The notes: generated from the letters alone by a model not told the origin. DNA of 64,000 bases from Pseudoflavonifractor sp. (GCF_050943825.1 NZ_JBMNPX010000010.1:7771-71770), one strand, 5' to 3'; shown: positions 1 to 19,581, counted from the first letter of the stretch. A program made the numbers and translations.

Positions 1-1
1 T

Positions 2-127
2 ACCGCTGAGACCACTCACAAATTTTTGCGCGAGAGTCACTGGCCTGCCCGTGTTGAATATGTGTTGAACGAGTATAAAATAGTTGGAAATAAAAGAACG
101 ACTGAACACCAAATCTTGCGGAAGTAA
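2..127 (+). CDS. Possible 3' end of an unidentified ORF entering from outside the window
   Basis: Open frame from position 2 (TAETTHKFLRESHWPARVEYVLNEYKIVGNKRTTEHQILRK) to TAA at 125-127. The start is not visible and the family is not recognised. Confidence 0.3.
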   Translation, partial: TAETTHKFLRESHWPARVEYVLNEYKIVGNKRTTEHQILRK

Positions 128-177
128 AAGGAATTCCATACATAACTTCTGATGTTTCTGTAATTTTTGATTTCTTA

Positions 178-268
178 CTTGAATGGCATTCAAGAGGTCA
201 GCGGTTCGATCCCGCTTATCTCCACCAAAAAGGCTTGAAATCGTAAGATTTCAGGCCTTTTTTCTTTT
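178..268 (+). repeat. att-like direct repeat: 3' 50 nt of tRNA-Ala(GGC) plus downstream terminator hairpin
   Basis: 178-227 is identical to 19337-19386 (CTTGAATGGCATTCAAG...TCTCCACCA). Similarity continues through aggc(t/c)tgaaatcgtaagatttcagg(c/t)cttt. The acceptor 5' strand, D-arm and promoter are missing. Confidence 0.9.
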
Positions 269-438
269 CTTCTGAACAAGCAGGGCAGGAGGCATGCCTG
301 TTCCTCGTCGGAATAGCTGATATAGCGGTCAGCAAAAGTGTCCATGGGGAGGTATCAATAGTTTAGAATAAAAGCTGGTTGAGATTGTTTCCACGCCTGA
401 ATTTGACGCGTTGGAACAAGAGATAACATAAGAATGGT

Positions 439-476
439 ACAGGGCGGTGCAGTTTATTTCTGCACCGCCCTGTTTT
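439..476 (+). terminator. Intrinsic terminator-like hairpin
   Basis: 14-bp perfect stem acagggcggtgcag / ctgcaccgccctgt, 7-nt loop, followed by a T run. Confidence 0.7.
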
Positions 477-655
477 CAGGTCTCCTACAAAAGTATTAAA
501 GCCGGTCGAAAATTTAACTTCTATGTCGAATAGGCACATAACATACGACATGGTACTATAATGTTGCACAATAAAAAACGCATCACGAGCTGAAAAATAG
601 GCATACTGATGGTTTTGTGAGGCCCAATAACCCATAAAAAAGTGGAGGGATTCAA

Positions 656-1915
656 ATGTCGATGATCGAGCGAGCGGAAAAGTTAAAGGATTTTATCAAC
701 TGTGCTTATGGTGAAGAGTTTAGAGAGTATTACTACGGCAAGTTCTTCACCGGAAGTATGAGCTTTACGGAAGATGACGAATCCTGCACGATTTACCTTG
801 AGCGGGGCGTGGTGACGAAGGTGGAAACGGGCCTCCCTGAGGGCGGAATTGACATTGGTCTGGCCGGAACCAAAAAGGGCTGGGATATGTGGGCGCCCTG
901 CCGCCGCAGCCTGTCCATTGTGTGCTACCAGATCCGTCAGGGCGGAAACCCGGAGGACTTTAAGACCATCGGCGAGCCCATCCGTTACCGCCAGAACAAC
1001 AACGCCCTGGCCCAGGCCGGACGGCTCTACTCCTATATCCGCGACGGCGTGACCCCTGGGAGCGATATGCCCAAGCGGGATGAGAGCAAGCCGGTGCCGC
1101 CTGACGGAGACGTGGCGATCCGCGGCTTCTATAAGCGCATCAACGGAGTCAAGATCTACTTTGAGACCAACGACGCCCCAGATGACAAGGCCACGCTGCT
1201 GTGCCTCCATACCGCAGGCCGTGAGAACCGCCAGTATCACGACATGATGGAGATTTTCAAGGACAAGTACCGGATGTATTCCGTGGACATGCCCGGTCAC
1301 GGAAAGAGCTGGCCTCTGCCCGGCAACAACGTAATCAATAACTACAAGGAATACGGCAAGTGGATTTGGGACTGTGTGGAGGCCCTGGGCCTGGAGAACC
1401 CCATCGTCATTGGCTGCTCCATGGCCGGCGGCATTACCTATCATATTGCCCAGGAGCACCCGGTGCGGGGCATCGTGTGCATGCAGGGCAATGACAACAC
1501 CGAGGACGGGATGGGCAATGTCCGCGAGATGCTCTTCCATCCCTATGTCTGCCCCCAGCATTCCCATCTGGAATTTACCGAGTCCCTGGTGGGGACCAGA
1601 ACCAGCCAGGATCGGGTGGACTTCATCAACTGGGGCGCTCTCTGCGAAATCGGCAAAATCAAGCAGGGCGACCTGACCGAGACCGGTACCTTCAACGTGA
1701 GCGACAAGATGGACCGCATCACCTGCCCGGTTATGATTATTGAGGGCATCGACGACCAGGCCTACACCGCCGAAATGGCTCAGGCCAGTCTGGACCGGCT
1801 TGTTAACTGCAAGAACAAGCGGATGAAGCTCTATGAGGGCTACGGCCACTTCATTGCCGTGGAAAATCCCGAGGCTGTCTGCGAGGCGCTTGACGAATTC
1901 ATCCAGTCTATCTGA
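656..1915 (+). CDS. Alpha/beta-fold hydrolase with an extra ~130-aa N-terminal domain (possibly SCP2-like)
   Basis: RBS GGAGG. Motifs LCLHTAG, VDMPGHGKS, nucleophile elbow GCSMAG, acid EGIDD and C-terminal GYGHF. The N-terminal domain assignment is tentative. Confidence 0.85.
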   Translation: MSMIERAEKLKDFINCAYGEEFREYYYGKFFTGSMSFTEDDESCTIYLERGVVTKVETGLPEGGIDIGLAGTKKGWDMWAPCRRSLSIVCYQIRQGGNPEDFKTIGEPIRYRQNNNALAQAGRLYSYIRDGVTPGSDMPKRDESKPVPPDGDVAIRGFYKRINGVKIYFETNDAPDDKATLLCLHTAGRENRQYHDMMEIFKDKYRMYSVDMPGHGKSWPLPGNNVINNYKEYGKWIWDCVEALGLENPIVIGCSMAGGITYHIAQEHPVRGIVCMQGNDNTEDGMGNVREMLFHPYVCPQHSHLEFTESLVGTRTSQDRVDFINWGALCEIGKIKQGDLTETGTFNVSDKMDRITCPVMIIEGIDDQAYTAEMAQASLDRLVNCKNKRMKLYEGYGHFIAVENPEAVCEALDEFIQSI

Positions 1916-1928
1916 TAGGAGTCGAATT

Positions 1929-3359
1929 ATGAGTATTGGAATTACAGGAACAGGCGTATATGTTCCGTACTACTATATAAAAAGAGAGACCATTGGCCGC
2001 CAGTGGGATGCCAAGGGCGCCAAGGGAGAGCGGAGCCTGTGCAACGCCGATGAGGACAGCGTGACCATGGCGGCGGAGGCCGCCATCAACTGCCTGGCAG
2101 GTCAGGACCGGGAGGCAGTTGACGGACTGTACTTTGCTTCTACCACCGCCCCCTATGCCGAAAAGTCCCACGCTTCCATTCTGGCCAAGGTCTGCGACCT
2201 GGCGGATTCCTGCCAGATTGCCGATTTCCTGGCCTCCACAAGAGCAGGCGTAAGCGCGGTAAAGGCGGCTTACAGCGCCGTGAAGGCCGGCATGTGCAAA
2301 AATGTGCTGGTGACCAGCGCAGATCAGCGAAACGGCTATCCCAAGTCCCAGCTGGAGCAGATGTTCGGCGATGCCGGTGCCGCCCTGATGGTGGGCACCC
2401 AGGATGTGGTGGCGTCCATCGAGGCGTTTGAGACGGTGAACGTGGAAATTCACGACGCCTGGAGAAACATCAAGGACGACTATGTGCGCACCGGTGAGAG
2501 CCGCTTTGTCAAGAGCAAGGGGTACACCTACGCCCTTGTGCGGGCCCTGAAGCAGCTGATGGCGTCTCAGTCCCTTACGCCGGATGATGTGACCAAGCTG
2601 ATTTTGCCCTCCACTTCCGCCAAGGACCACCTGGGTGTGGCCAAGGCCCTGGGTATCAGCCCGGAGAAGGTACAGGACCCCCTGCTGACGAACATCGGCG
2701 ATTGCGGAACCGCCCAGCCCCTGCTGCTTTTGGCGGCGGCGCTGGACGAGGCCAAGCCCGGCGACCTGATTCTCTGGTCCGCTTACGGCAGCGGAGCCGA
2801 GGCAGTTTTGCTGAAGGTGACGGAGCATGTGGAACATCTGCGGAACAAGGGCTTGATTCACAAGTATCTGTCCACCCGCCACGAGCTGACCGGTTATCCT
2901 CGTTTCCTGTCCTTCCGTGGACTTATCGAGGCTGAGCCCGGTGAGCCCTATAAGATCAACCCTTCCGGTTCCCTCTACTGGCGTGAGCAGAACTGCATTC
3001 TTTCTCTCCACGGCAGCAAGTGCAAAAAGTGCGGTCAGATTATGTTCCCCATCAACAGGGTCTGTTACAGCTGCCACTCCAAGGACGAGTATGAAGAGGT
3101 CCGGCTCTATGAGCGGGAGTTCAAGCTGTTTACCTATTCCATTGACCGGCTGGCGGGACGCAGCGACGATCCCATGATTGGCCAGGCAGTAGCCGAGGAC
3201 AGCCAGGGGACCAGAATCTACATGCTGATCACCGACTTCCAGGAGAGCGACATCAAAGTCGGCATGAACCTGGAGTTCAGCTTCCGTAAGATGCACAATC
3301 TTGGCGATTTCGTAAACTATTACTGGAAGCTCAGACCCGTGCGCAGAGGGGAGGAATAA
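1929..3359 (+). CDS. HMG-CoA-synthase-like (non-catalytic, PhlA-like) domain fused to a DUF35 Zn-ribbon/OB-fold domain (PhlB/BbsA-like)
   Basis: HMGS-fold motifs DEDSVTMA, GDAGAAL and NIGDCG. C-terminal CKKC...CYSC Zn ribbon followed by an OB fold (VGMNLEFSFRK). ATG at 1929. Confidence 0.88.
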   Translation: MSIGITGTGVYVPYYYIKRETIGRQWDAKGAKGERSLCNADEDSVTMAAEAAINCLAGQDREAVDGLYFASTTAPYAEKSHASILAKVCDLADSCQIADFLASTRAGVSAVKAAYSAVKAGMCKNVLVTSADQRNGYPKSQLEQMFGDAGAALMVGTQDVVASIEAFETVNVEIHDAWRNIKDDYVRTGESRFVKSKGYTYALVRALKQLMASQSLTPDDVTKLILPSTSAKDHLGVAKALGISPEKVQDPLLTNIGDCGTAQPLLLLAAALDEAKPGDLILWSAYGSGAEAVLLKVTEHVEHLRNKGLIHKYLSTRHELTGYPRFLSFRGLIEAEPGEPYKINPSGSLYWREQNCILSLHGSKCKKCGQIMFPINRVCYSCHSKDEYEEVRLYEREFKLFTYSIDRLAGRSDDPMIGQAVAEDSQGTRIYMLITDFQESDIKVGMNLEFSFRKMHNLGDFVNYYWKLRPVRRGEE

Positions 3360-3361
3360 GG

Positions 3362-4546
3362 GTGTCTATCAAGGATAAGGTTGCAATTGTGGGAATGGGC
3401 TGTTCCAAATTCGGAGAACGATGGGACTGCGGCATTTCGGATCTGATTATTGAATCCGCTTACGAGGCGTTTGAGGATGCCCATGTAAAGCCAGAGGACA
3501 TTCAGGCTGTGTTTTTCAGCGAGGGCAACCAGCCAAACGGCGGAACGGGCGCAACTCCTGTGGCGGACACGCTCAAGCTCTCCGGCATCCCCATGATGCG
3601 CAACGAGAGCTTCTGTACCTCCGGACATGTGGCGCTGATCCAGGCGGCCATGGCCATTGCCAGCGGCGAGTACGACGTTGTCATGGCCATCGGCGTGGAG
3701 AAGCTGAAGGATACCGGTTATGGCGGCCTGGGCGTGGGCCGCGGCTGGAATCCCGTGTATGAGGCCAGAAGAACGGGCCCCGGCTCCTTTGCCATGATTG
3801 CCTCCAGATATTTTGCCAAGTACGGCCTCAGCCCCGAGGAGGGAAAGCGGCTTATCGCCAAAATCGCGGTGAAGAATCACCACAACGGTATGCTCTCACC
3901 CAAGGCACATTTCCACAAGGAACTGACTGTGGATGACGTCATGAAGGCGCCCATCATCGCCTACCCGCTGGGCCTCTTTGACTGCTGCGGCAACAGCGAC
4001 GGCTCCGCCTGCGCCATTCTCACCCGGGCGGACATGGCGGCCAAGTACACCGACAAGCCCATCTATATCAAGGGCTACGGCATGGCGGTAGACTCCACGC
4101 TGAGCCAGAGCCGCCCCAATTTTGAGTGGACAGGCTTTGACGCCCTGAAGGACTCCTCCCGTCAGGCCTACAAGATGGCCGGCATTACGAATCCCAGGGA
4201 GCAGATCGATCTGGCCGAGGTCCACGACTGCTTTACCTGCACCGAGATGATTATCTATGAGGACTTCGGCTTCAGCCAGCCAGGGCATGCGGCGGAGGAC
4301 ATTGAGTCTGGCTTTTTCGAGCGGGACGGCGGTCTGCCTGTAAATGTGGACGGCGGCCTGAAGTGCTTTGGCCACCCTGTGGGCGCCAGCGGAATCCGGA
4401 TGACGTATGAAATTTTCAAGCAGCTCCAGGGGCGCGTGGACAACCCCGCCCGTCAGATTAAGGACTGCAAGATTGGACTCTCCCACACCTTCGGCGGTTC
4501 TCCTCAGGTGAGCGCCGTGCTGATTGCGGGAAATGAACTGGGGTGA
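3362..4546 (+). CDS. SCP2-type (non-classical) thiolase
   Basis: VAIVGMG, catalytic ESFCTSG, GVEK, AVKNH, EVHDCFT, GHPVGASG. No C-terminal CxGGG. GTG start with RBS GGAGGA. Confidence 0.92.
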   Translation: MSIKDKVAIVGMGCSKFGERWDCGISDLIIESAYEAFEDAHVKPEDIQAVFFSEGNQPNGGTGATPVADTLKLSGIPMMRNESFCTSGHVALIQAAMAIASGEYDVVMAIGVEKLKDTGYGGLGVGRGWNPVYEARRTGPGSFAMIASRYFAKYGLSPEEGKRLIAKIAVKNHHNGMLSPKAHFHKELTVDDVMKAPIIAYPLGLFDCCGNSDGSACAILTRADMAAKYTDKPIYIKGYGMAVDSTLSQSRPNFEWTGFDALKDSSRQAYKMAGITNPREQIDLAEVHDCFTCTEMIIYEDFGFSQPGHAAEDIESGFFERDGGLPVNVDGGLKCFGHPVGASGIRMTYEIFKQLQGRVDNPARQIKDCKIGLSHTFGGSPQVSAVLIAGNELG

Positions 4547-4551
4547 GCGGT

Positions 4552-5739
4552 ATGAGTGAAAAAGCACTGGAAGGAATTAAGGTTCTGGATATGAGCCGGG
4601 TCCTGGCCGGCCCCCACTGCGCCGCCATACTGGCCGATCTGGGCGCGGAGGTGCTCAAAATTGAGGAACCCGGCATGGGCGATGAGGCCAGATTCCTCAG
4701 GCCCTTCTCCAACGGTGAGAGCGCCTATTACATGAACTTCAACCGGGGCAAAAAGGGAATTACCCTGAACCTGAAGAGCGGAAAGGATATTTTCCTCCAG
4801 CTGGTGAAGGACGCGGACATTCTGGTGGAGAACTTCCGGCCGGGCGTCATGGCCAGACTGGGCCTGGACTACGAGACCTTGTCCAAGCTCAATCCGGGGC
4901 TCATCTATGTGGCCATTTCCGGCTACGGCCAGAGCGGCAGCAACAGCCAGCTGCCCGGCTACGACCCCATCGCCCAGGCCATGAGCGGCATTTGCAGCGT
5001 GACCGGCTGGCCTGATGCCGAGCCCGCCAGGTGCGGCGCGCCCGTGGCCGACGTGCTGGCAGGCATCAACGGCGCGGTGGGCGCTCTGGCGGCGCTGAAC
5101 TACCGCAACCGCACCGGCAAGGGCCAGATGATTGATGTCTCACTGGTGGATGTCTCGGTCAGCGCGCTGGCCAGCCTGAACCAGGTCTACCTGTCCGAGG
5201 GCCGGGTGCCGTCCCGTCAGGGCAACGGCACGGAGGCCGCGGCGCCTGGCGGCAGCTGCCACGCCAAAGACGGCACGGTGATTTTTGCCGCCGGAAACGA
5301 CAGGCTGTGGCCCAAGCTGGCCGCGCTGATGGGCCGGCCAGAGCTGGCGGAGGACGAGCGGTTCAGCAAAAACGCCCAGCGGGTAAAGCACCGCCGGGAG
5401 CTGGAGGAGATCATTGACCAGTGGGCCGGCCAGCTTACGGCCGATGAGGTTGTGGCCCAGATGCGCAGTGTTAAAATTCCGGCCGGGCCTGTCTACACCA
5501 TTGACCAGGTCGTAAATGATGCGTGCATTGCCAAAGAGCGCAATATGTTTGTCACCATCCAGCATCCTGCGGCGGGTGAGGTGCGCATCACCAACAATCC
5601 CCTCAAGATGTCTCTGACGCCTCCCCAGGTGCAGGGCAGCTCGCCCACGCTGGGGCAGGACAACGAGAGCGTTTACGGCGGGATACTTCACATGGACAGC
5701 GCGCAGATCCGGGCGCTGAGAGAGGAAAAAATCATTTAA
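4552..5739 (+). CDS. Family III (CaiB/BaiF) CoA-transferase 1
   Basis: VLDMSRVLAGP, GAEVLKIE, ENFRPG, SGYGQSG and active-site Asp in VADVLAG. Alternative GTG start at 4543. Confidence 0.93.
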   Translation: MSEKALEGIKVLDMSRVLAGPHCAAILADLGAEVLKIEEPGMGDEARFLRPFSNGESAYYMNFNRGKKGITLNLKSGKDIFLQLVKDADILVENFRPGVMARLGLDYETLSKLNPGLIYVAISGYGQSGSNSQLPGYDPIAQAMSGICSVTGWPDAEPARCGAPVADVLAGINGAVGALAALNYRNRTGKGQMIDVSLVDVSVSALASLNQVYLSEGRVPSRQGNGTEAAAPGGSCHAKDGTVIFAAGNDRLWPKLAALMGRPELAEDERFSKNAQRVKHRRELEEIIDQWAGQLTADEVVAQMRSVKIPAGPVYTIDQVVNDACIAKERNMFVTIQHPAAGEVRITNNPLKMSLTPPQVQGSSPTLGQDNESVYGGILHMDSAQIRALREEKII

Positions 5740-5759
5740 GGCGAAGAGAGGCGAGGTAA

Positions 5760-7088
5760 ATGAAAAAAGCGAAAAAAGGCTTTCTCGGCTGGTACATGGT
5801 CATTCTGGCCAGCCTGATCACCACCTTCTCCGGCAACTTCGGCAGCAACGCCCAGGGCGTGGCCAACACACTGATGATGACGAGCCCGGAAAACACCGTA
5901 ACCCAGGTGGCGTATGGACTCTCATGGACCATTACCCAGATTGTGGCCGCGTTGGGCGGCCTGCTGATGGGCTCCTTCGTTGACAGATTCGGCGCAAAGA
6001 AAATGTTTATTGTGGGCAGCCTTCTGTCCATTCTCTCCGGCTTTGTGCTGGTGCAGTTCCAGGCGGGCAGCTCCCTGATGTTCCTGTTCAACTACGGCTT
6101 TGTGGTGGCGCTGAGCTACCAGTGCGTGTCCTTCGTGACCACCCAGTCGGTTGTCAGCAACTGGCTCCAGAAGCGCAGAGGCACCGGCGGCGCCATCGTC
6201 AACACCGGAACCGTTATCGCCGGTATTATTACCGCACCTATCGTGACCTGGCTCATCAACTCCGTCGGCAACGGCAACTGGAAGTATGGCTACTACTACT
6301 TCGGCGCTGCCAGCATTATCGGCCTGATTCTCTCCTTCTTCATCATTAACAAGCCTTCCGATGTGGGGCAGTATCCCGACGGCGTGGAGCCTGGCCGGGA
6401 TGCCGGAGACACGCCGAAGAAAGGACAGGCGGCAGCGGCCGTAAGCAGGGTGTTCAAAAATGTGCTGCCTGAAAATCACTACACCTTTAAGCAGGCGCTG
6501 CGCTCTCCTCTCCTGTGGGCCCTGATTGTCCTCCATGCGTGCTCCCTCTGCCTGTCCAACTATATCATGAACCCCGGCTCCCTGCTCTTTGTCCAGGCCG
6601 GCTTTGCCATGGAGACTGTGTCTACGGTGCTCTCCATCCGCCAGGTGATCCGCCTTCTGTTCCTGGCGTTCCTGATGCGTTACCTGGACAAGATTGAACC
6701 CGTTAAGCTCCTTACCTTTACCTGTGCCCTGGCCGGTGTGTGCTACCTGGTCTCCGCCAACCCCACCAGCTACTGGCAGATTCTGGTGTTTTACGCCGGC
6801 GGCAGCATTGTGATGTCCGCCCAGATGGCAATTCCCGGCGTCATGCTGGCGAATATCTTCGGCACGACCAACTTCGGCAAGATTTACGGCGCGTATTTGA
6901 TGGTGGCCACCCTGATTTCTTCCGTCTCTCCCACCATCAGCGGAACGATTGCCCAGAATACCGGATCTTATGTCATGGCAAACTACCTGTGGGCTTCCAT
7001 AGCTGTGGTTGCTCTGGTGGCCGGCCTTGTGAGCATCCGGCTCTTTAAGAAGGAGACCGGAAAGATTCTGGCTGTTACCGGGAAGTAA
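5760..7088 (+). CDS. MFS transporter
   Basis: About 12 hydrophobic segments, MFS motif A GSFVDRFGAK, NWLQKRRG and FGTTNFG. Confidence 0.9.
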   Translation: MKKAKKGFLGWYMVILASLITTFSGNFGSNAQGVANTLMMTSPENTVTQVAYGLSWTITQIVAALGGLLMGSFVDRFGAKKMFIVGSLLSILSGFVLVQFQAGSSLMFLFNYGFVVALSYQCVSFVTTQSVVSNWLQKRRGTGGAIVNTGTVIAGIITAPIVTWLINSVGNGNWKYGYYYFGAASIIGLILSFFIINKPSDVGQYPDGVEPGRDAGDTPKKGQAAAAVSRVFKNVLPENHYTFKQALRSPLLWALIVLHACSLCLSNYIMNPGSLLFVQAGFAMETVSTVLSIRQVIRLLFLAFLMRYLDKIEPVKLLTFTCALAGVCYLVSANPTSYWQILVFYAGGSIVMSAQMAIPGVMLANIFGTTNFGKIYGAYLMVATLISSVSPTISGTIAQNTGSYVMANYLWASIAVVALVAGLVSIRLFKKETGKILAVTGK

Positions 7089-7142
7089 AGAAAAACAGGC
7101 CATAGAAAGGGTCTGACTGGTTTGTATCAGGAGGAATGACAA

Positions 7143-8249
7143 ATGAGGATTATCGGCGTTGAAGCAATCCCTGTCAACATCCCCTTTGCCGGGACGATCA
7201 ACTGGAAATCCGGCCATATGGCCGGCGCGGACAACGTAGTTGTGAAAATCACCGCAGAGGACGGTACTTACGGCGTTGGAGAGGCCACTCCCCGCATCGG
7301 AATCTACGGAGAAACGCAGCAGTCCATCTACTACGTCATCAAAGATGTCCTCGCGCCCATGCTGATCGGGGAGGACTCCTTCAATCTGCAGAAGCTCTGG
7401 GACAAAATGAGCTTTGCCGTCTGGAATCCCACGGCAAAGGGCGCCATCGACATTGCGCTCTACGACCTGAACGGGCGTCTGTGCGGTCTGCCCATCTGCA
7501 AGATGCTGGGTGGTCCGTACAGAACGGAAGTCCCCCTGTCCTGGACCATGGCCGGCACCTACGGCAGTTATCAGGACCAGGTGGATGAGGTGGTGCGCAA
7601 GACCGCGGAGGGATACAGGAGCTTCAAAATCAAGACGGGCAACGGCGACGTGGACGAGGACATCCGCCTGCTCAAGGAGATGAAGGCCAACTGCCCCGAG
7701 GGCACCACTCTCTATATTGACGTCAATATGGCCTATACCCGTGAGGAGGCCTTCAAGGTACTGCGGGCGCTGGAGGGGGTTATTTCCTGCGCGGAGGAGC
7801 CGCTGCCCAGCACGGACAACGAGGGCCGCGCGGCCCTGGCCAAAGCCACGTCCGTCCCCATTCTCAGCGATGAGAGCACCATCACCGTCAATGACGTCTA
7901 CCGGCAGATCCAGCTGGGCGCCATCAGCCGTGTGGGCATCAAGCTGCCCCGGACCGGTTTCTTCCTCTCCACCAAGATTGTGCACCTGGCGGAAAGCGCA
8001 AACCTGCCCTGCCAGATCAGCACCCAGCTGGAGAGCGATCTGGGTACCGCCAACTGCGTGCAGCTTGCAGCCGCCTTCAAACAGATATCCCTGCCCTGTG
8101 AGATCGCATTCTATGACGAGAACTTCAGTGCGTCTCTCATCAAGAAGCCTCTGGTTATTCAAAACGGCTGCCTGCCGCTCCCCGATGGGCCGGGCAGCGG
8201 CGTAGAGATTGACTGGGACAGCGTGGACAAATATCGGGTAAAAATCTGA
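7143..8249 (+). CDS. Enolase-superfamily enzyme, muconate-lactonising (MLE) subgroup
   Basis: GVGEA, AIDIALYD, KxK (FKIKTG), metal ligands DVN / EEP / DES, second Lys GIKL and PDGPGSG. Confidence 0.9.
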   Translation: MRIIGVEAIPVNIPFAGTINWKSGHMAGADNVVVKITAEDGTYGVGEATPRIGIYGETQQSIYYVIKDVLAPMLIGEDSFNLQKLWDKMSFAVWNPTAKGAIDIALYDLNGRLCGLPICKMLGGPYRTEVPLSWTMAGTYGSYQDQVDEVVRKTAEGYRSFKIKTGNGDVDEDIRLLKEMKANCPEGTTLYIDVNMAYTREEAFKVLRALEGVISCAEEPLPSTDNEGRAALAKATSVPILSDESTITVNDVYRQIQLGAISRVGIKLPRTGFFLSTKIVHLAESANLPCQISTQLESDLGTANCVQLAAAFKQISLPCEIAFYDENFSASLIKKPLVIQNGCLPLPDGPGSGVEIDWDSVDKYRVKI

Positions 8250-8267
8250 GCGCCGCCTCTGCCCAGT

Positions 8268-8310
8268 CCCCCGGGCTGTCTGACAGCCCGGGGGCGGCGG
8301 CTTGTTTTTG
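8268..8310 (+). terminator. Intrinsic terminator ending the hydrolase-to-enolase operon
   Basis: Perfect 13-bp arms cccccgggctgtc / gacagcccggggg (8268-8294), followed by cttgtttttg. Confidence 0.75.
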
Positions 8311-8364
8311 CACGGGGGTTGTGCTATCTTCTTTTTACTTATTTGTTTGAAAGGAGTGCACTCT

Positions 8365-9981
8365 GTGGGAATTTCTGCTTTGCGGCTCAAGGAGCTGTTT
8401 GAGGACAGGCTTTCTCTTCGCCTGAAGGCCGGAGAGGCAGGCATGGGGCGCGTGGTGGAGAAGCTTGCCGTCATGGAGACGGAGGACTTTTATCTGGGAG
8501 CAGAGCCGCGGGGGATGTTTGTGCTGACAACCCTCTCTTTTGTGCAGAAGGACGGGGCCGGGATGGAAGCAGTCATAGGCTTGATACGGGCAGGTGTATC
8601 CGTCCTCGGGGTAAAAATCAACCGGTACTTCAACGAAATCCCCCGTGATATTGTTGACGTGGCAGACCAGTACGGGATTCCGCTGTTTGAAATTGGATCC
8701 GATATACACTTCAGCAATGTCATCCGGCTGATTACCGAGGAAATTGTTATGGAGTCCGCCGGAGGCAAAGACGAGACAGCGAGCAGGCATGCACAGCTTC
8801 TGCGGAAGTATATGAATGATGAGCCATTGGAAGCAATTCTCGGCTCTCTGGGGGAAATGATAGGCGCGTCCTGCTTCTTCATTGATGTCCAGAGCCGTAT
8901 TCTGGCCAGCTATCAATTTCCGCAGCGCGCTTCAAACCGGAACATTTCCCTTCTTGGGAATAAGCTGCTGAAAAAAAGCCTGAACTATGGCAGAAAAAAG
9001 CACTGCTTTTATGACGAAAAGGATGCTGTGTTTCTCTGCCAGGCAGGTGAAACTCTTTTGGGTGTGCTGGTCATTATGGATCAGGGGCAGCTGCCCAGGG
9101 AGTGCGAAGAGGTGGTTTGGCAGGCGCTGTCATATATAGTGGTGCGGGTATGTGAGCAGCGGATCACAGAGCGCCAGAGCGCGATGGATCAAGGCAGCGG
9201 CCTGTTGGATCAGGTGCTTTTTCAGCAGCAGCGGGAGGGCGCGGTCATCCGAAATCACCTGAAAAACGGTGGATTTGAGCTACTGGACCGGTATACGTTC
9301 ATTGTTGTGGCGCGAAGGGAGACTGGCGGCGGTGAGGTAAGCTCCGCACCTATGGAATACTGTGGGGCGCAGCTCAGGAACTGCTTTGAGCGGTGCATTA
9401 TAAAGTGGGATAGTCACGGCATAAAGTGCTTGATCACCTTTCCGAAAGACAGTTCCATGGCCCAAAGCGGAGTGCTGGCAGACCGGATGATCGCATTCAG
9501 GAACCAATATCTCTCGTCGGACGAGCACTTTTTTGACATTGGATTGAGCCTGGTACAGGAGGATCCCTGTGAGATAACAAGGAGCTTTCTTCAGGCCCAG
9601 GCCGCAATTGAGCACGGAAGAATATACAGGCCAGAAAAGCATATTTACGACTATGCGGCATTTTTGGTCCAGGGTCTCCTCCATCAGGCGCAGGGTACCC
9701 AGGAGTACAACTGGCTCTGTCAGAATGTTGTGGAGCCGATCAGCGAGCGGGACCGTCTATATGAGAGCGGACTGTGGGAGACCCTTGATGTGCTTTTCCG
9801 CGTACGCTCCCTGAAGGTGGCCGCCAACGACCTGCATATTCATATCAGTACGCTCAGGTATCGCCTGCAAAAGGTAAAAGACGTTACGGGGCTTGATTTC
9901 CTTACGGCATACGGGAATTATGTGCTCCATACGGCCTATTTAATATGGATGGAGAACAATATCCGATATGGAAGCGAGTGA
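8365..9981 (+). CDS. PucR/CdaR-family transcriptional regulator
   Basis: N-terminal PucR sensor domain (GIPLFEIG..FSNVI) and C-terminal HTH (AANDLHIHISTLRYRLQK). GTG at 8365 with RBS AAGGAG. Confidence 0.9.
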   Translation: MGISALRLKELFEDRLSLRLKAGEAGMGRVVEKLAVMETEDFYLGAEPRGMFVLTTLSFVQKDGAGMEAVIGLIRAGVSVLGVKINRYFNEIPRDIVDVADQYGIPLFEIGSDIHFSNVIRLITEEIVMESAGGKDETASRHAQLLRKYMNDEPLEAILGSLGEMIGASCFFIDVQSRILASYQFPQRASNRNISLLGNKLLKKSLNYGRKKHCFYDEKDAVFLCQAGETLLGVLVIMDQGQLPRECEEVVWQALSYIVVRVCEQRITERQSAMDQGSGLLDQVLFQQQREGAVIRNHLKNGGFELLDRYTFIVVARRETGGGEVSSAPMEYCGAQLRNCFERCIIKWDSHGIKCLITFPKDSSMAQSGVLADRMIAFRNQYLSSDEHFFDIGLSLVQEDPCEITRSFLQAQAAIEHGRIYRPEKHIYDYAAFLVQGLLHQAQGTQEYNWLCQNVVEPISERDRLYESGLWETLDVLFRVRSLKVAANDLHIHISTLRYRLQKVKDVTGLDFLTAYGNYVLHTAYLIWMENNIRYGSE

Positions 9982-10006
9982 CCCGCAACTGCCATGGAGG
10001 AGTTTT

Positions 10007-11350
10007 ATGGTAGGCAATCAGAGAGAACTGAAGGACTACAAAGTATGGACAAAAGCAAAATTTTGGCTGTTCAGCTGCATAGGTATTCTAATCTTTGTTG
10101 TTCCGATTTCCATTGACGGCGTAAGCCAGATTGGCCTTGTCCACATTGGCAACCGGATTACGGCATTGCTGGGTTCCGCCGCAGACTATATTATCTATGC
10201 ATTTGCTGTATGGGGCGTAATTTTAATCTTCAAAGAACGCAAAAAGAGGTTTAAAGGGTTTTTCAATATCCTGATGAGCGCACTCTCTCTGCTGGGCATT
10301 GTGTGCATGACTCTGTATATCTTTGGAGCCGCCCCGGACTTCCTTGCGGACGAGCGGTTTATGCCATTCATTATGGACCAGGTACTCTATCCCACCCTGC
10401 TTTATACCGGGATTTCACCCTTGTTTATGCCGTTTTTGCTTAACTCCGGCCTGCTGGAATTTGTAGGTGTTGCGCTTCGCCCCCTGCTCCGTCCGGTCTT
10501 CAAGCTGCCGGGCAGAGCGGCGGTTATCACAGTTTCCGCCTTTTTCGGCTCTGCACCGGTCGGAATCGTGGTGGTGGACAACCTCTATAAAGACGGACGC
10601 TTTACCTATAAGGAGGCGTTTCTGATGGGAACCGGATTTGCCACCACAGCCATCTCCTTTATGGTAATTCTCAGCGATCTGGGCGGAATCTCGGACTACT
10701 GGGGACTGTATCTCTTTGCGTGCCTTCTGGGTCTGGCCGTAATTGCAATTCTGCAGGTGCGCATTTATCCCACCAGTAAAATACCTGAGAGCACCTACAA
10801 CGGTATGGAATATGTACAGGAGACGGAGGGGAAGAAGGGCGGAATACTCATCAAGAGAATGCTGTTGGCGGGATATGAACGGGCGGAATCTATGGAGCAT
10901 TTGGGGAAAGAGTGCCTTGGAATGCTGAAGACCTCCGGCAAGCTGCTGGGCAATATTATGGCCAGCACCTGCGGCATGGTAGTGGTGGGACTGGTGCTGA
11001 ATTACTACACTCCGCTGCTGGACATTCTGGGGTATTTGTTTTATCCATTTGCCCTCCTGGCTGGGCTGGCAGACCCTCTGACAGTGGGGAAAGGAGCCGC
11101 CTCGGCGCTTCTCGTGCCCTCTCTTCCGGCGGTATATGCAGGAACAGCAGGAGCTCTGGCCTCCAAGGTGGTTCTGTGCGCAATGCCGGTTCTGGGCATT
11201 ATCAGCATTCCGCTGACCATGCCGGTATTTTTCAACTCTGCGGTGAAATATACCGCAAAAGACCTGTTTATTGTCTACGTGGAGCGCATGATTCTTACCA
11301 TTTTGATTGTTGCGGTCATTGTCCACGGATATGTATGGCTCTTTATGTGA
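10007..11350 (+). CDS. YjiH-family (gate-domain) membrane transporter
   Basis: Multi-TM protein with LLEFVG..LRPLLRPVFKLPGRAA and F GSAPVG motifs. ATG at 10007 with RBS GGAGG. Confidence 0.8.
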   Translation: MVGNQRELKDYKVWTKAKFWLFSCIGILIFVVPISIDGVSQIGLVHIGNRITALLGSAADYIIYAFAVWGVILIFKERKKRFKGFFNILMSALSLLGIVCMTLYIFGAAPDFLADERFMPFIMDQVLYPTLLYTGISPLFMPFLLNSGLLEFVGVALRPLLRPVFKLPGRAAVITVSAFFGSAPVGIVVVDNLYKDGRFTYKEAFLMGTGFATTAISFMVILSDLGGISDYWGLYLFACLLGLAVIAILQVRIYPTSKIPESTYNGMEYVQETEGKKGGILIKRMLLAGYERAESMEHLGKECLGMLKTSGKLLGNIMASTCGMVVVGLVLNYYTPLLDILGYLFYPFALLAGLADPLTVGKGAASALLVPSLPAVYAGTAGALASKVVLCAMPVLGIISIPLTMPVFFNSAVKYTAKDLFIVYVERMILTILIVAVIVHGYVWLFM

Positions 11351-11364
11351 GAGGCGGTGGCAAG

Positions 11365-12576
11365 ATGAAAGACATTTTACCGGACGTCCCCAGAGGGGCG
11401 CTGGAGGGGCTTAATGTTTTGGATTTGGGGCGCATGGTGGCCGCCCCTTACTGTGCCATGATGCTTGCCAATCTGGGCGCCCATGTTATTAAAATTGAGG
11501 AGCCCGGAGGAGGAGATATTTCCCGGGAAAGCATGCCCAAAAAGGACGGAGAGAGCACATACTATATCAATTATAACTGCAGTAAGTATAGCCTGACGCT
11601 AAACCTGAAGCATGAAGAGGGAAAGCGTATTCTTGCAAAGCTGATAGAAAAAGCTGACGTCCTGGTAGAAAATTTTCGGCCCGGCGTAATGAAGCGGCTG
11701 GGTTTTTCTTATGAAGCGGCTGCAAAAATAAATCCAGGTCTCATTTACGTCTCCATATCCGGCTATGGACAGTCCGGACAACTGGCGGATCGGGCTGCCT
11801 TTGATCCGATTGCTCAGGCCATGAGCGGAATAACCAGCATTACCGGAGAGCCCGATGGGGAGCCCGTCAGGTGCGGCGCATCTATTGCAGACGTGCTTGC
11901 TGGACAGAACGCAGCTTTTGCCGTTCTCGCAGCACTGAGATACCGGGAGCAATGCGGAAAAGGTCAATGGATTGACATCGCGCTGGCGGATTCGTGCATT
12001 TCCGCTATGACCGGTATAAATCAGATCTATCTGACCGAAGGGCGGATTCCCGGACCTTTGGGCAACGGTTTTGCGGCCAACGCGCCAGGAAACGCATACC
12101 ACTGCAAAGATGGGAAGATTATGCTGCTGGCAGGACGAAACAGCGAGTGGGAACGGCTGGCCAAGGTGCTGGGCTGTCCTCAGTGGCTGGAGCGGGAGGA
12201 ATTTTCCGATGTGGCCGCCAGAACCAGAAACAGAGACTTGCTTGACCGCACCATCGACCAGGAGACGCGAAAGTATACTGTGGAGGAACTGCTGTCTAAG
12301 TTCCTTGACGCGAGGCTGCCTGCAGGAGAGATCTATAATGTAAAGCAGGTGGTAGAGCACCCTCACTTCAACAAGGAACGAAATATGTTTGTGGACGTGG
12401 AACATCCCAGGCTGGGCAGCCTGAAGGTCACCAATCTGCCCATACATATGTCGGAGACCCCACCTAAAATGTACAAGTGTGCGCCCTGTTTGGGAGAGGA
12501 CACCGATAAAATTTTAGCTCAGTTGGGCTATGATACGGAGGAAATCTCCACATTGCGCAGAGACCATGTGATTTAA
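11365..12576 (+). CDS. Family III (CaiB/BaiF) CoA-transferase 2
   Basis: VLDLGRMVAAP, ENFRPG, SGYGQSG, IADVLAG. ATG at 11365; the ORF-track upstream extension overlaps the previous gene. Confidence 0.93.
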   Translation: MKDILPDVPRGALEGLNVLDLGRMVAAPYCAMMLANLGAHVIKIEEPGGGDISRESMPKKDGESTYYINYNCSKYSLTLNLKHEEGKRILAKLIEKADVLVENFRPGVMKRLGFSYEAAAKINPGLIYVSISGYGQSGQLADRAAFDPIAQAMSGITSITGEPDGEPVRCGASIADVLAGQNAAFAVLAALRYREQCGKGQWIDIALADSCISAMTGINQIYLTEGRIPGPLGNGFAANAPGNAYHCKDGKIMLLAGRNSEWERLAKVLGCPQWLEREEFSDVAARTRNRDLLDRTIDQETRKYTVEELLSKFLDARLPAGEIYNVKQVVEHPHFNKERNMFVDVEHPRLGSLKVTNLPIHMSETPPKMYKCAPCLGEDTDKILAQLGYDTEEISTLRRDHVI

Positions 12577-12706
12577 AGATGTATGTCTCCCCGAGTATGG
12601 GGTAATAGGGGGGCATTAAAACCGTTTTCATATCCCCTGTCCTGCATCTTAGCGATATCGGAGGGGGAAAACCGTATATATCATCTTGTCCGGTACGAAG
12701 ATAGAC

Positions 12707-12740
12707 AAGGAGCTGCCTCTTGTGGGAGGCAGCTCCTTTC
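12707..12740. terminator. Terminator hairpin between convergent genes
   Basis: aaggagctgcctc / gaggcagctcctt 13-bp stem. Confidence 0.7.
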
Positions 12741-12745
12741 TTTCG

Positions 12746-14365
12746 TTATCCAGCGTATCGAATTGCGATATCCATGGTCTCGGTAAGGCCGGCTTCCAAA
12801 CTGGTGATATATACCGTAACAACAGTATTCTCAGCAGCGGAGTTCATAACATAGAAACCCAGCGTGAGGTAGTCACCGACTGCAAGGTAACGAGTGTCCG
12901 TTTCCGATGTAGAAATCAAGTAATACTTCGTGATGCATTCCGGCTTTACATACCCTTGGGCAGTGATATCGCTTTTGGCGATGTTTGCATCGGCATCAGG
13001 ATAGACGTAGATGTTGCCGATAACGTCAAGGCCATTGCTCGTATAGTGGGCAGAATCCTTGCTGGTGAATTTGGTGCCTTTGTCGGTATACCAAACCTGT
13101 GCCAGGCGGTAATACTCCGGGCTGGGAGACACGTAGTAGACTGGCTCGTTGTCGGTATCCAGACGGAAATTAGCGGTTTCGCCTTCGGCAGGGCGCCGCT
13201 CAAAGACCCTGATCTGCACGGAAAAAATCATTTCGCTATCAGCATCGGTGCTGTTGTCATAGACCACAGCAGCACCGCCGGATTTCTTGGCGGTGATGTT
13301 GGCACGGTGATCATCGATATTAGTGACAGCCGCAATATCGCTCTGGAAAGATTTCCACTTTCCAATTTTAACAAAGCCGCAGTCCTCAGAGTTCAGCGAA
13401 AATGTATCACCGGGGAACAAATTGATTTCCAGAGTGGTGCTGCGCACAGTCATCTTGGGGTTGAATGTGGTGGTCATCACACCGATGATACCGTTGCCCA
13501 GGTCCACATAGACCTGCTGCTCTACCACGTCATCCCCGACAGCCATCTCCGTGCCGGCCGGAATTAACCCTTTGGAACTTTTGCCCGGGCGGACCTGAGT
13601 ATCATTGACGCCGGGAGCAATCGTTTCGAACGCCTCCTTGACGGAAATGGGTTCATCCTTCACGACAATGCCGCCGGGGAGGGTAAGCTCCGTTCCACTC
13701 TGGCCGCTGGAGGAGCTGTCAGAAGAATCGCCTCCGTTCAGCTTCTGGTCCATGCGCATAAAAACAGTTGCCGCCTCTGCTCGGGTCAGCTCCTTGTTGG
13801 GATTAAAATTGCCTGCAGAGTCGCCCGCCATCAGGCCAATGGCCTGCATATACTTGACGCCTTCCAGCGCCCAGGAAGGGATTGCCGCAATATCATTGAA
13901 TGCCGCAGAATTCCCATCCTCTTCGAGGTCTGCGTTGATGCTGTGGAGGTAATTGGAGAGGATAACCGCGATTTGAGCACGAGTCACAACAGAATTGGGG
14001 CTGAAGGTATTCGCGCCGGTGCCGGAAACATACCCCTGCTCATAGGCCCAGTCAATGGCGTCCGCATACCAGTCAGAGGGCTGCACATCGCTGAAGCTGG
14101 CGTCCTTGGCCGAGGATACGTCCGCCTTCGCCACGTTGCTTAAAACCACCACAATCATGCCGCGGGTCATAGGCGTTGAGGGCGAGAAGGTGCCGGCCCC
14201 GGTGCCCGAAAACATTCCGTGGCTCACGGCGTAGTCCACGGCCTGGGAGTACCAGGCGTCATCGGGCACGTCGGTAAATGCTGCGGCGTGAGCGGCTGTA
14301 CTGGCTGCGGCAATATTGACCGTCATGGCTCCCGCCAGCAAAAGACTGGCAATCTTTCTTTTCAT
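12746..14365 (-). CDS. Secreted SLH-domain surface protein
   Basis: Signal peptide MKRKIASLLLAG, three N-terminal SLH repeats (FTDV...WY; MTRGM; VTRAQ; LTRAE), Ser/Gly linker and an unknown C-terminal region. Confidence 0.9.
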   Translation of the reverse strand: MKRKIASLLLAGAMTVNIAAASTAAHAAAFTDVPDDAWYSQAVDYAVSHGMFSGTGAGTFSPSTPMTRGMIVVVLSNVAKADVSSAKDASFSDVQPSDWYADAIDWAYEQGYVSGTGANTFSPNSVVTRAQIAVILSNYLHSINADLEEDGNSAAFNDIAAIPSWALEGVKYMQAIGLMAGDSAGNFNPNKELTRAEAATVFMRMDQKLNGGDSSDSSSSGQSGTELTLPGGIVVKDEPISVKEAFETIAPGVNDTQVRPGKSSKGLIPAGTEMAVGDDVVEQQVYVDLGNGIIGVMTTTFNPKMTVRSTTLEINLFPGDTFSLNSEDCGFVKIGKWKSFQSDIAAVTNIDDHRANITAKKSGGAAVVYDNSTDADSEMIFSVQIRVFERRPAEGETANFRLDTDNEPVYYVSPSPEYYRLAQVWYTDKGTKFTSKDSAHYTSNGLDVIGNIYVYPDADANIAKSDITAQGYVKPECITKYYLISTSETDTRYLAVGDYLTLGFYVMNSAAENTVVTVYITSLEAGLTETMDIAIRYAG

Positions 14366-14658
14366 GAATCCTCTCTCCTTACTTGAAAATGTTTTTGAGG
14401 GCCCGCCCTCGGGATAACGCAGCAACAATATACGGAAGGTTACAAGCTGCAGAAACGTTTTCCCTTGCTGAACATATATCTTACCACACTGGGGATTTGT
14501 ATGTAAATGCCTTTCAGAGAGCAGCTTTTTGCTGCAGCAGCCCTCTGAGTCTGTATTGCAGCAATTTTACATGTTTGATATACTGTAAGTGCAAAAAACA
14601 AGAGATTTGATGCCATCTGTTGACGCTGGATACCAATAGAGTGACGGGGGGTTATACG

Positions 14659-19037: not shown

Positions 19038-19251
19038 GATAGGCGCTCCTTTCTGACGCACGGCCCGGAGCATATCAAATGCCGGGCTTATGGTGTCGGG
19101 TTTCCTGCATTCCCAGAACATTATATCATATAAAAAGGGAAGCGGGAGAGAAACGCCGTACTGCAGCCGCCGGAAATTGTGCTGCGCCGCTGGGCAGCAG
19201 CTGTCACAGCGGATTGCCCGAGAGAAAAATAGGGAAATTTTAAATTTTCAG

Positions 19252-19310: not shown

Positions 19311-19386
<76 letters not shown>

Positions 19387-19581
19387 AAAAAGGCCTGAAA
19401 TCGTAAGATTTCAGGTCTTTTTCTTTTTTGAAATTGAAACAGAGAATATAACTCAGCTGCCCGGCGGACTCAAGGGAGCAGCCCGCTTTCTTGCCGGGAT
19501 ATATGAAGACGCCGCCCGTAATCCGGTTGGGCGGCGCCTTTTTTAAATGAATTTATGAAATCTCGTTCCGCTTTTATGCAC

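Follow-up and report, generated by a model that had tools for sequence, protein, structure and literature searches.

The ACAT/HMGS-DUF35 complex of P. fluorescens performs thiolysis of acetoacetyl-CoA but no condensation, and the histidine of its HDxF motif is essential for this reaction, whereas PhlC and MucB, in which HDxF is lost, do not cleave (PMC12960953, 2026). Among 1,030 bacterial HMGS-ACAT-DUF35 loci, 1,001 had no known role and were regarded as orphan "evolutionary intermediates" (PMC12960953). Here, we analysed a nine-gene cluster at positions 656-12576 of a 64,000-nucleotide stretch of Pseudoflavonifractor sp. DNA (GCF_050943825.1 NZ_JBMNPX010000010.1:7771-71770; this whole stretch is called the window below), in which a pair of the P. 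fluorescens type by architecture and motifs is not an orphan but is embedded in a conserved, putatively catabolic cluster. With moderate confidence, and relying on functions predicted for its products, we read it as a modular locus for the breakdown of a carboxylic acid taken up by the cell, a di- or tricarboxylate or a lactone acid being the likeliest. A variable upper part of the locus would deliver a 3-oxo acid, and a lower part, a CoA-transferase and a thiolase, would cleave it.

Other described systems share parts of this equipment. In the anaerobic toluene pathway, BbsAB combines a DUF35 zinc-ribbon partner with an SCP2-type HDxF thiolase, and family III CoA-transferases able to recycle the acyl-CoA product as donor make a CoA ligase dispensable. 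The lower beta-ketoadipate pathway (CatB, CatC, PcaD, PcaIJ, PcaF) and its methyl-muconolactone (mml) variant have in common with the window the reaction kinds of a cycloisomerase, a serine hydrolase, a CoA-transferase and a thiolase, as well as an MFS importer for a pre-formed intermediate. The archaeal acetoacetyl-CoA thiolase/HMGS/DUF35 complex (6esq) is built from the same three structural modules as the window pair, and the PhlACB/MucABC C-acetyltransferases likewise contain a dead HMGS-like subunit, a thiolase-like subunit and DUF35. In the literature searched, whose coverage was incomplete, we found no described pathway that matches the gene set, in line with the earlier note on this DNA, which was made from the sequence alone and presented the pathway as undescribed.

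An open reading frame (ORF) listing together with Pfam and NCBIfam scans placed nine co-directional genes on the + strand, tightly spaced as the earlier note had listed them, with one hairpin between the sixth and the seventh:

656-1915, + strand: SCP2-fold/alpha-beta-hydrolase fusion, 419 aa (Pfam Abhydrolase_1/6, Hydrolase_4)
1929-3359, + strand: dead HMGS-like domain fused to a DUF35 zinc-ribbon/OB domain, 476 aa (KAS-III/HMGS and zf-ChsH2 domains), called the fusion protein below
3362-4546, + strand: SCP2-type thiolase, 394 aa (NCBIfam PRK06157)
4543-5739, + strand: family III CoA-transferase 1, 398 aa, Asp170 (Pfam CoA_transf_3, 7e-127)
5760-7088, + strand: MFS transporter of the monocarboxylate or oxalate-formate type, 442 aa (Pfam MFS_1)
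7143-8249, + strand: MLE-subgroup enzyme of the enolase superfamily, 368 aa (Pfam MR_MLE_N, MR_MLE_C)
8252-8309, + strand: GC-rich hairpin followed by UUGUUUUU (U-run), candidate terminator or attenuator (fold -38.3 kcal/mol, z = -1.9)
8365-9981, + strand: PucR-family transcriptional regulator, 538 aa, GTG start (Pfam PucR, GGDEF_2, HTH_30)
9968-11350, + strand: Gate-domain (YjiH-like) integral membrane protein, 460 aa (Pfam Gate, 2.9e-10)
11365-12576, + strand: family III CoA-transferase 2, 403 aa, Asp176 (Pfam CoA_transf_3)

The thiolase pair and the CoA-transferases

By searching the PDB, we found that the fusion protein matches PhlA best (5m3k_A, 1.6e-33), followed by archaeal HMGS (6esq_I, 1.1e-30) and, over its C-terminus, by the archaeal DUF35 protein (6esq_E, 1e-10). 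The catalytic tetrad of archaeal HMGS (E82/C114/H238/N270) is replaced by T72/T104/P227/D258, as expected from the earlier description of the protein as a pseudo-HMGS, and the nucleophile position reads S-T-R-A-G across a 32-member family alignment. Therefore, the HMGS domain is best seen as a non-catalytic scaffold. In the same alignment the zinc-ribbon cysteines Cys365/368/379/382 are invariant, and the fusion protein is presumed to be the scaffold partner of the thiolase. A mevalonate/HMG-CoA role was rejected on the loss of the tetrad: the archaeal complex is biosynthetic (mevalonate) and has an active HMGS, whereas the window HMGS lacks all four catalytic residues and lies in a catabolic context.

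The thiolase itself keeps its catalytic motifs (Cys85, H288-D-C-F and G337-H-P), and both HDxF and GHP are present in 86 of the 86 orthologues collected. It scored 510 bits against NCBIfam PRK06157, over the cut-off of 403, and its best PDB match was the archaeal thiolase (6esq_A, 8e-60), with PhlC/MucB-type chains (4e-42) and BbsB (7pxp_C, 5e-40) behind it. We thus predict that this protein is the catalytic subunit and cleaves a 3-oxoacyl-CoA thiolytically. With the P. fluorescens system the window shares a fused HMGS-DUF35 protein that has lost the E-C-H-N tetrad, a partner thiolase with Cys, HDxF and GHx, and the absence of polyketide synthase or non-ribosomal peptide synthetase (PKS/NRPS) neighbours (PMC12960953), our Pfam scan having detected no PKS/NRPS domain in the cluster. 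The pair agrees with the P. fluorescens type in every sequence feature that defines it, and departs from the PhlACB type, which has lost HDxF, and from the archaeal type, whose HMGS is active. The earlier proposal that the DUF35/thiolase pair is a Bbs-like degradative thiolase gained from these comparisons, since the motifs are kept and a fused homologue cleaves acetoacetyl-CoA (PMC12960953). The window proteins are nevertheless distant from Bbs itself, with 150.9 bits against a cut-off of 750 for BbsB (NF053628) and 25.8 against 250 for BbsA (NF053627). Unlike in BbsAB, DUF35 is fused here to a dead HMGS domain, and the oxidation enzymes BbsG, BbsH and BbsCD have no counterpart in the window cluster.

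The two CoA-transferases are paralogues, 50% identical to each other. For transferase 1, the closest models and structures are dicarboxylate transferases (succinate-glutarate, mesaconate, YfdE, SUGCT). The earlier note had compared the two genes with the two-subunit transferase BbsEF, an idea that the relatives do not bear out: the BbsEF subunits are an obligate pair, whereas transferase 2 is a dispensable paralogue, missing from L011/L012 and L016, close relatives that keep the seven-gene core described below. In two other close relatives the transferase 1 gene is split into overlapping ORFs (L007:4777-5974, 210+203 aa; L008:4777-5966, 165+249 aa), which reflects either a frameshift pseudogene or an assembly error.

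Conserved and variable parts of the cluster

By scanning one genome per species, we retrieved 463 loci encoding the fusion protein, and the best 80 of them, together with loci fetched earlier, were classified by their neighbours. In three metagenome contigs (L006-L008), all nine genes are present with their order kept and the fusion protein is 79% identical to that of the window. L009 keeps eight genes, an MFS protein replacing the Gate protein and located downstream of transferase 2, while L011, L012 and a Cellulomonas metagenome-assembled genome (MAG; L016) keep a seven-gene core. This core, which includes PucR and MLE, has a constant order at 65-79% identity of the fusion protein. The Gate protein was seen only in the closest relatives L006-L008 and is absent from L011; we presume that it is a second transporter and a variable part of the cluster. 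Since the same set recurs elsewhere, the nine-gene arrangement is not a product of chance, and the co-occurrence on which the earlier proposal depended is borne out by a unit conserved across phyla.

Among the classified loci, class A (n = 31) shows the order fusion protein-thiolase-CoA-transferase in 31 of 31 cases, transferase 1 always lying 3' of the thiolase gene. The SCP2 protein and the hydrolase are found in 25 of these loci, PucR in 22 and MLE in 16, and the 31 loci contain 47 transferase genes in total. MLE, which the earlier note had treated as a part of the pathway, is thus present in the window but accessory in the family. Class A comes from metagenome contigs and from at least five phyla (Actinomycetota, Bacillota, Synergistota, Pseudomonadota and Thermodesulfobacteriota), with taxa that include Oscillospiraceae, Ruthenibacterium, Lachnospiraceae, Solobacterium, Sporomusa, Bacillus/Psychrobacillus, Jeotgalibaca, Synergistaceae, Cellulomonas, Rhodobium, Cohaesibacter, Breoghania and Desulfovibrionaceae. 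The transporters of these loci are of the MFS, AtoE, CitMHS or TRAP-TAXI types.

Where MLE is missing, class A loci carry MmgE/PrpD, a second hydrolase with a nitroreductase, a D-2-hydroxyacid dehydrogenase or an aminotransferase. In L019, L038 and L040 (and also in L017, L024, L044 and L047), a MmgE/PrpD gene follows the fusion-thiolase-transferase-transporter genes and sometimes replaces the SCP2, hydrolase and MLE genes. This replacement suggests that interchangeable upper modules are combined with one lower module. The earlier note had called the locus redox-free, without dehydrogenase, hydratase, oxygenase or CoA ligase. This holds for its nine products, in which the Pfam and NCBIfam scans detected none of these four kinds of domain, but not for the family, because some sister clusters have a redox enzyme such as the dehydrogenase or the nitroreductase in the place of MLE.

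In class B (n = 54), mostly from Desulfobacterales, Syntrophaceae and Chloroflexota, the neighbours of the pair are enoyl-CoA hydratase, acyl-CoA and 3-hydroxyacyl-CoA dehydrogenases and B12-dependent acyl-CoA mutases. Such surroundings are those of a beta-oxidation thiolase, which supports the thiolase role of the pair. In several class B loci, such as L062, L070, L073, L081 and L086, the B12-dependent acyl-CoA mutase is accompanied by MeaB, a second conserved context of the orphan complex. A maximum-likelihood tree of the fusion protein gathered all class A sequences in one clade with a support of 100/99; the few class B entries within this clade are mostly short or contig-end fragments. The window protein grouped with L006, L009, L011 and the Cellulomonas MAG with a support of 100/100.

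For the 656-1915 product, the hydrolase announced in the earlier note is present with an intact triad, but an N-terminal domain had gone unrecognised. Residues 1-135 (nt 656-1060) adopt an SCP2 (sterol-carrier) fold in the predicted model, and residues ~155-419 form the alpha/beta hydrolase. The AlphaFold2 (AF2) models reached a predicted local distance difference test (pLDDT) score of 94.7 for the full 419-aa protein and of 95.5 for the N-domain alone. With Foldseek, the sole fold matches of the N-domain were SCP2 domains (E 9e-5 to 1e-3, TM 0.45-0.67), namely Thermus SCP2, UbiJ-SCP2, human SCP2 and an alkylsulfatase C-domain, which assigns the modelled domain to the SCP2 fold. By sequence, the first 135 residues had no Pfam match, and a profile search of 1.84 billion representative proteins returned only 33 relatives. 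In distant clusters the N-domain is a separate gene of ~130 aa immediately 5' of a hydrolase gene of 266-280 aa; being fused here and adjacent elsewhere (a Rosetta-stone fusion), the SCP2 domain and the hydrolase are expected to act together. The invariant residues are Trp76, Arg112, Gln113, Arg123 and six Gly/Pro positions in the SCP2 domain, and the triad Ser255/Asp367/His398 and the segment H-T-A-G-R-x-x-R-Q-x-H (HTAGRENRQYH in the window protein) in the hydrolase, where the conserved Arg189 and Arg192 adjoin the oxyanion hole. Profile and fold searches with the hydrolase gave generic alpha/beta-hydrolase matches only, at 11-19% identity, which are uninformative on the substrate.

The MLE protein is 35% identical over 361 positions to the muconate cycloisomerase of M. 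smegmatis (3dg3, 2e-55). Further PDB matches were 4m0x (6e-46) and the N-succinyl/N-acyl amino-acid racemases 2p88 (2e-41) and 1sja (8e-27). Across 14 cluster orthologues there is no variation in K162-x-K164, D193, E218/E219, D243 and K267 (the KxK motif, the three metal ligands and the second lysine). Against the CatB model TIGR02534 the protein scored 198.9 bits, below the cut-off of 334.95, and its scores with Ala-Glu epimerase models were lower (135.8 vs a cut-off of 500 for NF041118; 46.4 vs 343 for NF011708). Its best matches being muconate cycloisomerases (198.9 vs 135.8 bits), the protein is not a plain L-Ala-D/L-Glu epimerase, an identity that the earlier note had named as one that would undo its proposal. 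The MLE orthologues form a discrete family, identity dropping from at least 46% to at most 39% with nothing between. The pairing with an MFS gene is also seen in L006, L009, L011 and L097.

Two of these orthologues occur without the thiolase cluster. In L097 (Paraburkholderia sp. BL27I4N3), the gene adjoins LysR, MFS and porin genes beside a CoA-ligase/MaoC/ACAD/HpcH-lyase operon, and in L098 it is flanked by genes for an FGGY kinase and for a sugar-type ABC transporter. These neighbours gave no clue to the substrate.

A candidate route and its alternatives

In the modular reading proposed above, the MFS and Gate proteins would import the substrate. The MFS protein, whose NCBIfam matches to L-lactate and oxalate/formate families are weak, is presumed to be a substrate importer or a substrate/product antiporter. 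The MLE-type enzyme would then abstract a proton next to a carboxylate, leading to the opening or closing of a lactone or to epimerisation, and the SCP2-hydrolase would hydrolyse an (enol-)lactone or an ester to a 3-oxo acid, or else act on a CoA ester. A family III CoA-transferase would turn the 3-oxo acid into its CoA thioester, probably with succinyl- or acetyl-CoA as donor. With free CoA, the SCP2-type thiolase, held in complex by the dead HMGS/DUF35 fusion, would release acetyl-CoA and a second acyl-CoA; as the latter could be reused as CoA donor, no ATP-dependent ligase would be needed. For transferase 2 and the Gate protein, a role with a co-substrate or a product is probable. Overall, an anaerobe would obtain acetyl-CoA and, via acetate kinase, ATP by a redox-neutral route.

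The two halves of this scheme differ in firmness. The lower module, that is a transferase and a predicted degradative thiolase complex acting on a 3-oxoacyl-CoA, is assigned by homology and conserved in every relative, while the upper module is more conjectural and varies between relatives. The catabolic reading is supported by the presence of all catalytic residues of the thiolase, the transferases (Asp170, Asp176), the hydrolase and MLE. Moreover, a polycarboxylate substrate is suggested by the types of transporter, by the sites rich in arginine and by the likeness of the transferases to dicarboxylate enzymes.

Several points weigh against it. An SCP2 fold suggests a hydrophobic or acyl-CoA ligand, which fits poorly with small hydrophilic acids, and the hydrolase may use a CoA ester. 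The step that forms the 3-oxo group is conjectural, the hydrolase being ~15% identical to all its fold matches with no close characterised relative. We know of no family III transferase that acts on 3-oxo acids. MLE orthologues are also encoded away from the cluster (L097, L098; 54-55% identity), and more genes of the pathway could lie elsewhere in the genome.

A broader proposal can be put forward tentatively. The orphan complexes of dead HMGS/DUF35 and SCP2-thiolase might carry out the cleavage in a ligase-free catabolic route that is widespread but undescribed. In it, a new pair of an SCP2-fold protein and a serine hydrolase, alone or together with an MLE-type cycloisomerase, would make a 3-oxo acid from an imported lactone or unsaturated polycarboxylate, and family III CoA-transferases and the thiolase complex would convert this acid, with no net redox change, to acetyl-CoA and a recyclable acyl-CoA. 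If this is true, a class of compounds whose fermentation is not yet known would supply anaerobes with ATP at the substrate level, and a physiological role would be found for a thiolase architecture whose in vitro characterisation dates only from 2026 and which was left without a pathway. The SCP2-fold partners of serine hydrolases would also form a small new protein family, with no Pfam model and 33 cluster representatives, and a ligase-free (here redox-free) route from an apparently widespread acid to acetyl-CoA would be added in gut Clostridia, acetogens, sulfate reducers and some aerobes. Given a constant lower part and swappable upper parts, the question of the substrate is directly testable.

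The other explanations differ in how they use the same proteins. The transferase could act first, on the imported acid, leaving the SCP2/hydrolase protein to unmask a 3-oxoacyl-CoA by opening a ring or an ester on the CoA thioester. SCP2 domains of peroxisomal beta-oxidation enzymes (SCPx, MFE-2) bind acyl-CoAs, so that the fold of the N-domain speaks for this order, as does the fact that a free, unstable 3-oxo acid would be avoided; Arg189 and Arg192 of the hydrolase and Arg112 and Arg123 of the SCP2 domain could bind the CoA phosphates. The same arginines could however equally bind carboxylates of the substrate, the sequence does not fix the order of the steps, and we know of no alpha/beta hydrolase of such a kind, which counts against this order and makes it unlikely in our view. 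Quite unlikely is also a literal anaerobic beta-ketoadipate lower pathway, in which imported muconate would pass through the MLE lactone, the enol-lactone and 3-oxoadipate to acetyl-CoA and succinyl-CoA. The best characterised relatives of MLE are indeed true muconate and chloromuconate cycloisomerases (3dg3, 4m0x), the weak hydrolase matches include PcaD and PcaDC as well as, by fold, the enol-lactonase 2xua, the fusion of an accessory domain to a hydrolase recalls the PcaC-PcaD fusions, and the transferases resemble succinyl-CoA-dependent dicarboxylate transferases. But the muconolactone isomerase CatC (PF02426) is absent from the whole genome (G000) and from 12 of the 13 other carrier genomes, control genomes being positive, and the SCP2 domain was rejected as a CatC-like replacement, having no invariant acid/base residue. 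The hydrolase scored 50 bits against the PcaD model TIGR02427 (cut-off 255.85), with generic fold matches at ~12-19% identity, the thiolase 33-35 bits against 3-oxoadipyl-CoA thiolase models (cut-offs 605-622), and MLE stayed below the TIGR02534 cut-off given above. Furthermore, MLE is missing from 15 of the 31 class A loci, and no ring-cleavage dioxygenase was found among the conserved neighbour families of these 31 loci. Because CatC is absent and the proteins fall far from PcaD, PcaIJ and PcaF, the likeness to the beta-ketoadipate pathway drawn in the earlier note is one of reaction types and not of membership, which fails for CatC, the hydrolase, the transferases and the thiolase. The hydrolase, the transferase (family III vs family I) and the thiolase (SCP2-type vs thiolase I) are analogues rather than orthologues, and the window family, with its optional MLE and no link to ring cleavage, lives mostly in anaerobes.

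Turning to other substrates, N-acyl amino acids or compounds resembling N-(3-oxoacyl)-homoserine lactones could be degraded by MLE as a racemase and by the hydrolase as an amidase or lactonase with a lipid-binding SCP2 domain, passing a 3-oxo fatty acid on to the transferase and the thiolase. The MLE subgroup does include N-succinyl/N-acyl amino-acid racemases (2p88, 1sja), the fold matches of the hydrolase include the esterase Est816, which degrades N-acyl-homoserine lactones, and SCP2 folds bind lipophilic chains. We consider this very unlikely, the racemase matches lying ~45 bits or more below the cycloisomerase match, the transporters being of small-carboxylate, citrate and TRAP types rather than lipid or peptide importers, and the transferases being dicarboxylate-like. 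That there is no single pathway at all, but an island mosaic of two or more unrelated modules, 656-8249 (enzymes, MFS and MLE) and 8365-12576 (PucR, Gate and transferase 2), would agree with the terminator-like hairpin between the MLE gene and pucR, the variability of the Gate protein and transferase 2 among relatives, the MLE orthologues in other contexts and the rearranged region in which the cluster is located; we nonetheless judge it highly improbable in view of the constant order of the seven-gene core at 65-79% fusion-protein identity and of a fusion/thiolase/transferase/SCP2/hydrolase set linked across phyla. Hardly any credence is left for a CoA-independent C-acyltransferase of the PhlACB/MucABC kind working in reverse, deacylating acyl-phloroglucinols, tetramic acids or acetylated phenols. 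In its favour, the fusion protein has PhlA as its first PDB hit and the thiolase hits PhlC/MucB-type chains; the thiolase, however, matches its archaeal counterpart better, there is no PKS/NRPS gene nearby, and the CoA-transferase is strictly linked. PhlC and MucB, whose acceptors are phenolic or tetramate compounds and whose clusters are biosynthetic, have lost HDxF (PMC12960953), whereas the window thiolase and its 86 orthologues keep both HDxF and GHP. We rejected this reading on the HDxF motif and on the CoA-transferase linkage in 31 of 31 loci.

Transcription and genomic setting

Intergenic distances range from -14 to +54 bp throughout the cluster, save for 115 bp between the MLE gene and pucR, where the 8252-8309 hairpin sits. 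The nine-gene unit is flanked by terminator hairpins at 227-262 and 12707-12738, and this flanking together with the tight spacing supports a transcription unit. The internal hairpin may split the cluster into two transcription units or serve as an attenuator. The GTG start of pucR is preceded by an AAAGGAG site, and the PucR protein shares 56% identity with its counterpart in the sister cluster L006, the alignment starting at residue 22 of the ORF. The cluster is probably under the control of this regulator of its own. An Rfam search of positions 1-13500 for a riboswitch or leader returned nothing credible, the top match reaching 25.9 bits against a gathering score of 100.

The G+C content is 56.1% in the cluster and 60.8% in the genome. 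The fusion gene is absent from 10 congeneric species, and a sample of 300 genomes of the same order (153 genera) gave no hit to it at E <= 1e-50. Among 60 relatives searched, the only genome with a full-length homologue of the fusion protein belongs to the same family, and this homologue is 37% identical and of class B. The cluster was probably acquired horizontally and is isolated in this genome. Its borders are marked by two features:

178-268, + strand: 3' 50 nt of tRNA-Ala(GGC) and a terminator hairpin, left edge of the inserted block (identical to the 3' half of full tRNA-Ala genes)
12707-12738, either strand: bidirectional terminator with a 14-bp stem, common to the convergent SLH gene, right end of the unit

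Positions 178-268, where ARAGORN found no complete tRNA, form a direct repeat of 19337-19427 (92 nt, 95.7% identity), and a full tRNA-Ala(GGC) gene lies at window 19311-19386. The block 269-12702 is bracketed by two direct-repeat units whose copies are 94-96% identical, each unit consisting of an SLH-protein gene, a spacer that differs in length, and the tRNA-Ala(GGC) 3' end with its terminator. With the duplicated SLH gene, the repeats enclose the cluster exactly, C10:5466-7284 of the same genome matching window 12703-14515 with 94-96% identity. Just upstream of the window (L096, that is G000:C10:1-8500) are genes for a tyrosine integrase (L096:3515-4780, - strand), a RecD-like helicase and an HTH protein.

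The cluster is placed inside a variable-looking region of surface proteins. SLH-domain proteins are encoded in series at 12746-14428 (- strand), 14620-16635 (+ strand), 17106-19121 (- strand) and 28074-34577 (+ strand), and the series includes a 2167-aa protein with fn3, MBG, InlB-B-repeat and SLH domains. Shortly downstream of the full tRNA-Ala gene, positions 21144-23252 (- strand) encode a 702-aa NB-ARC/AAA_16 and TPR protein, a STAND-type NTPase.

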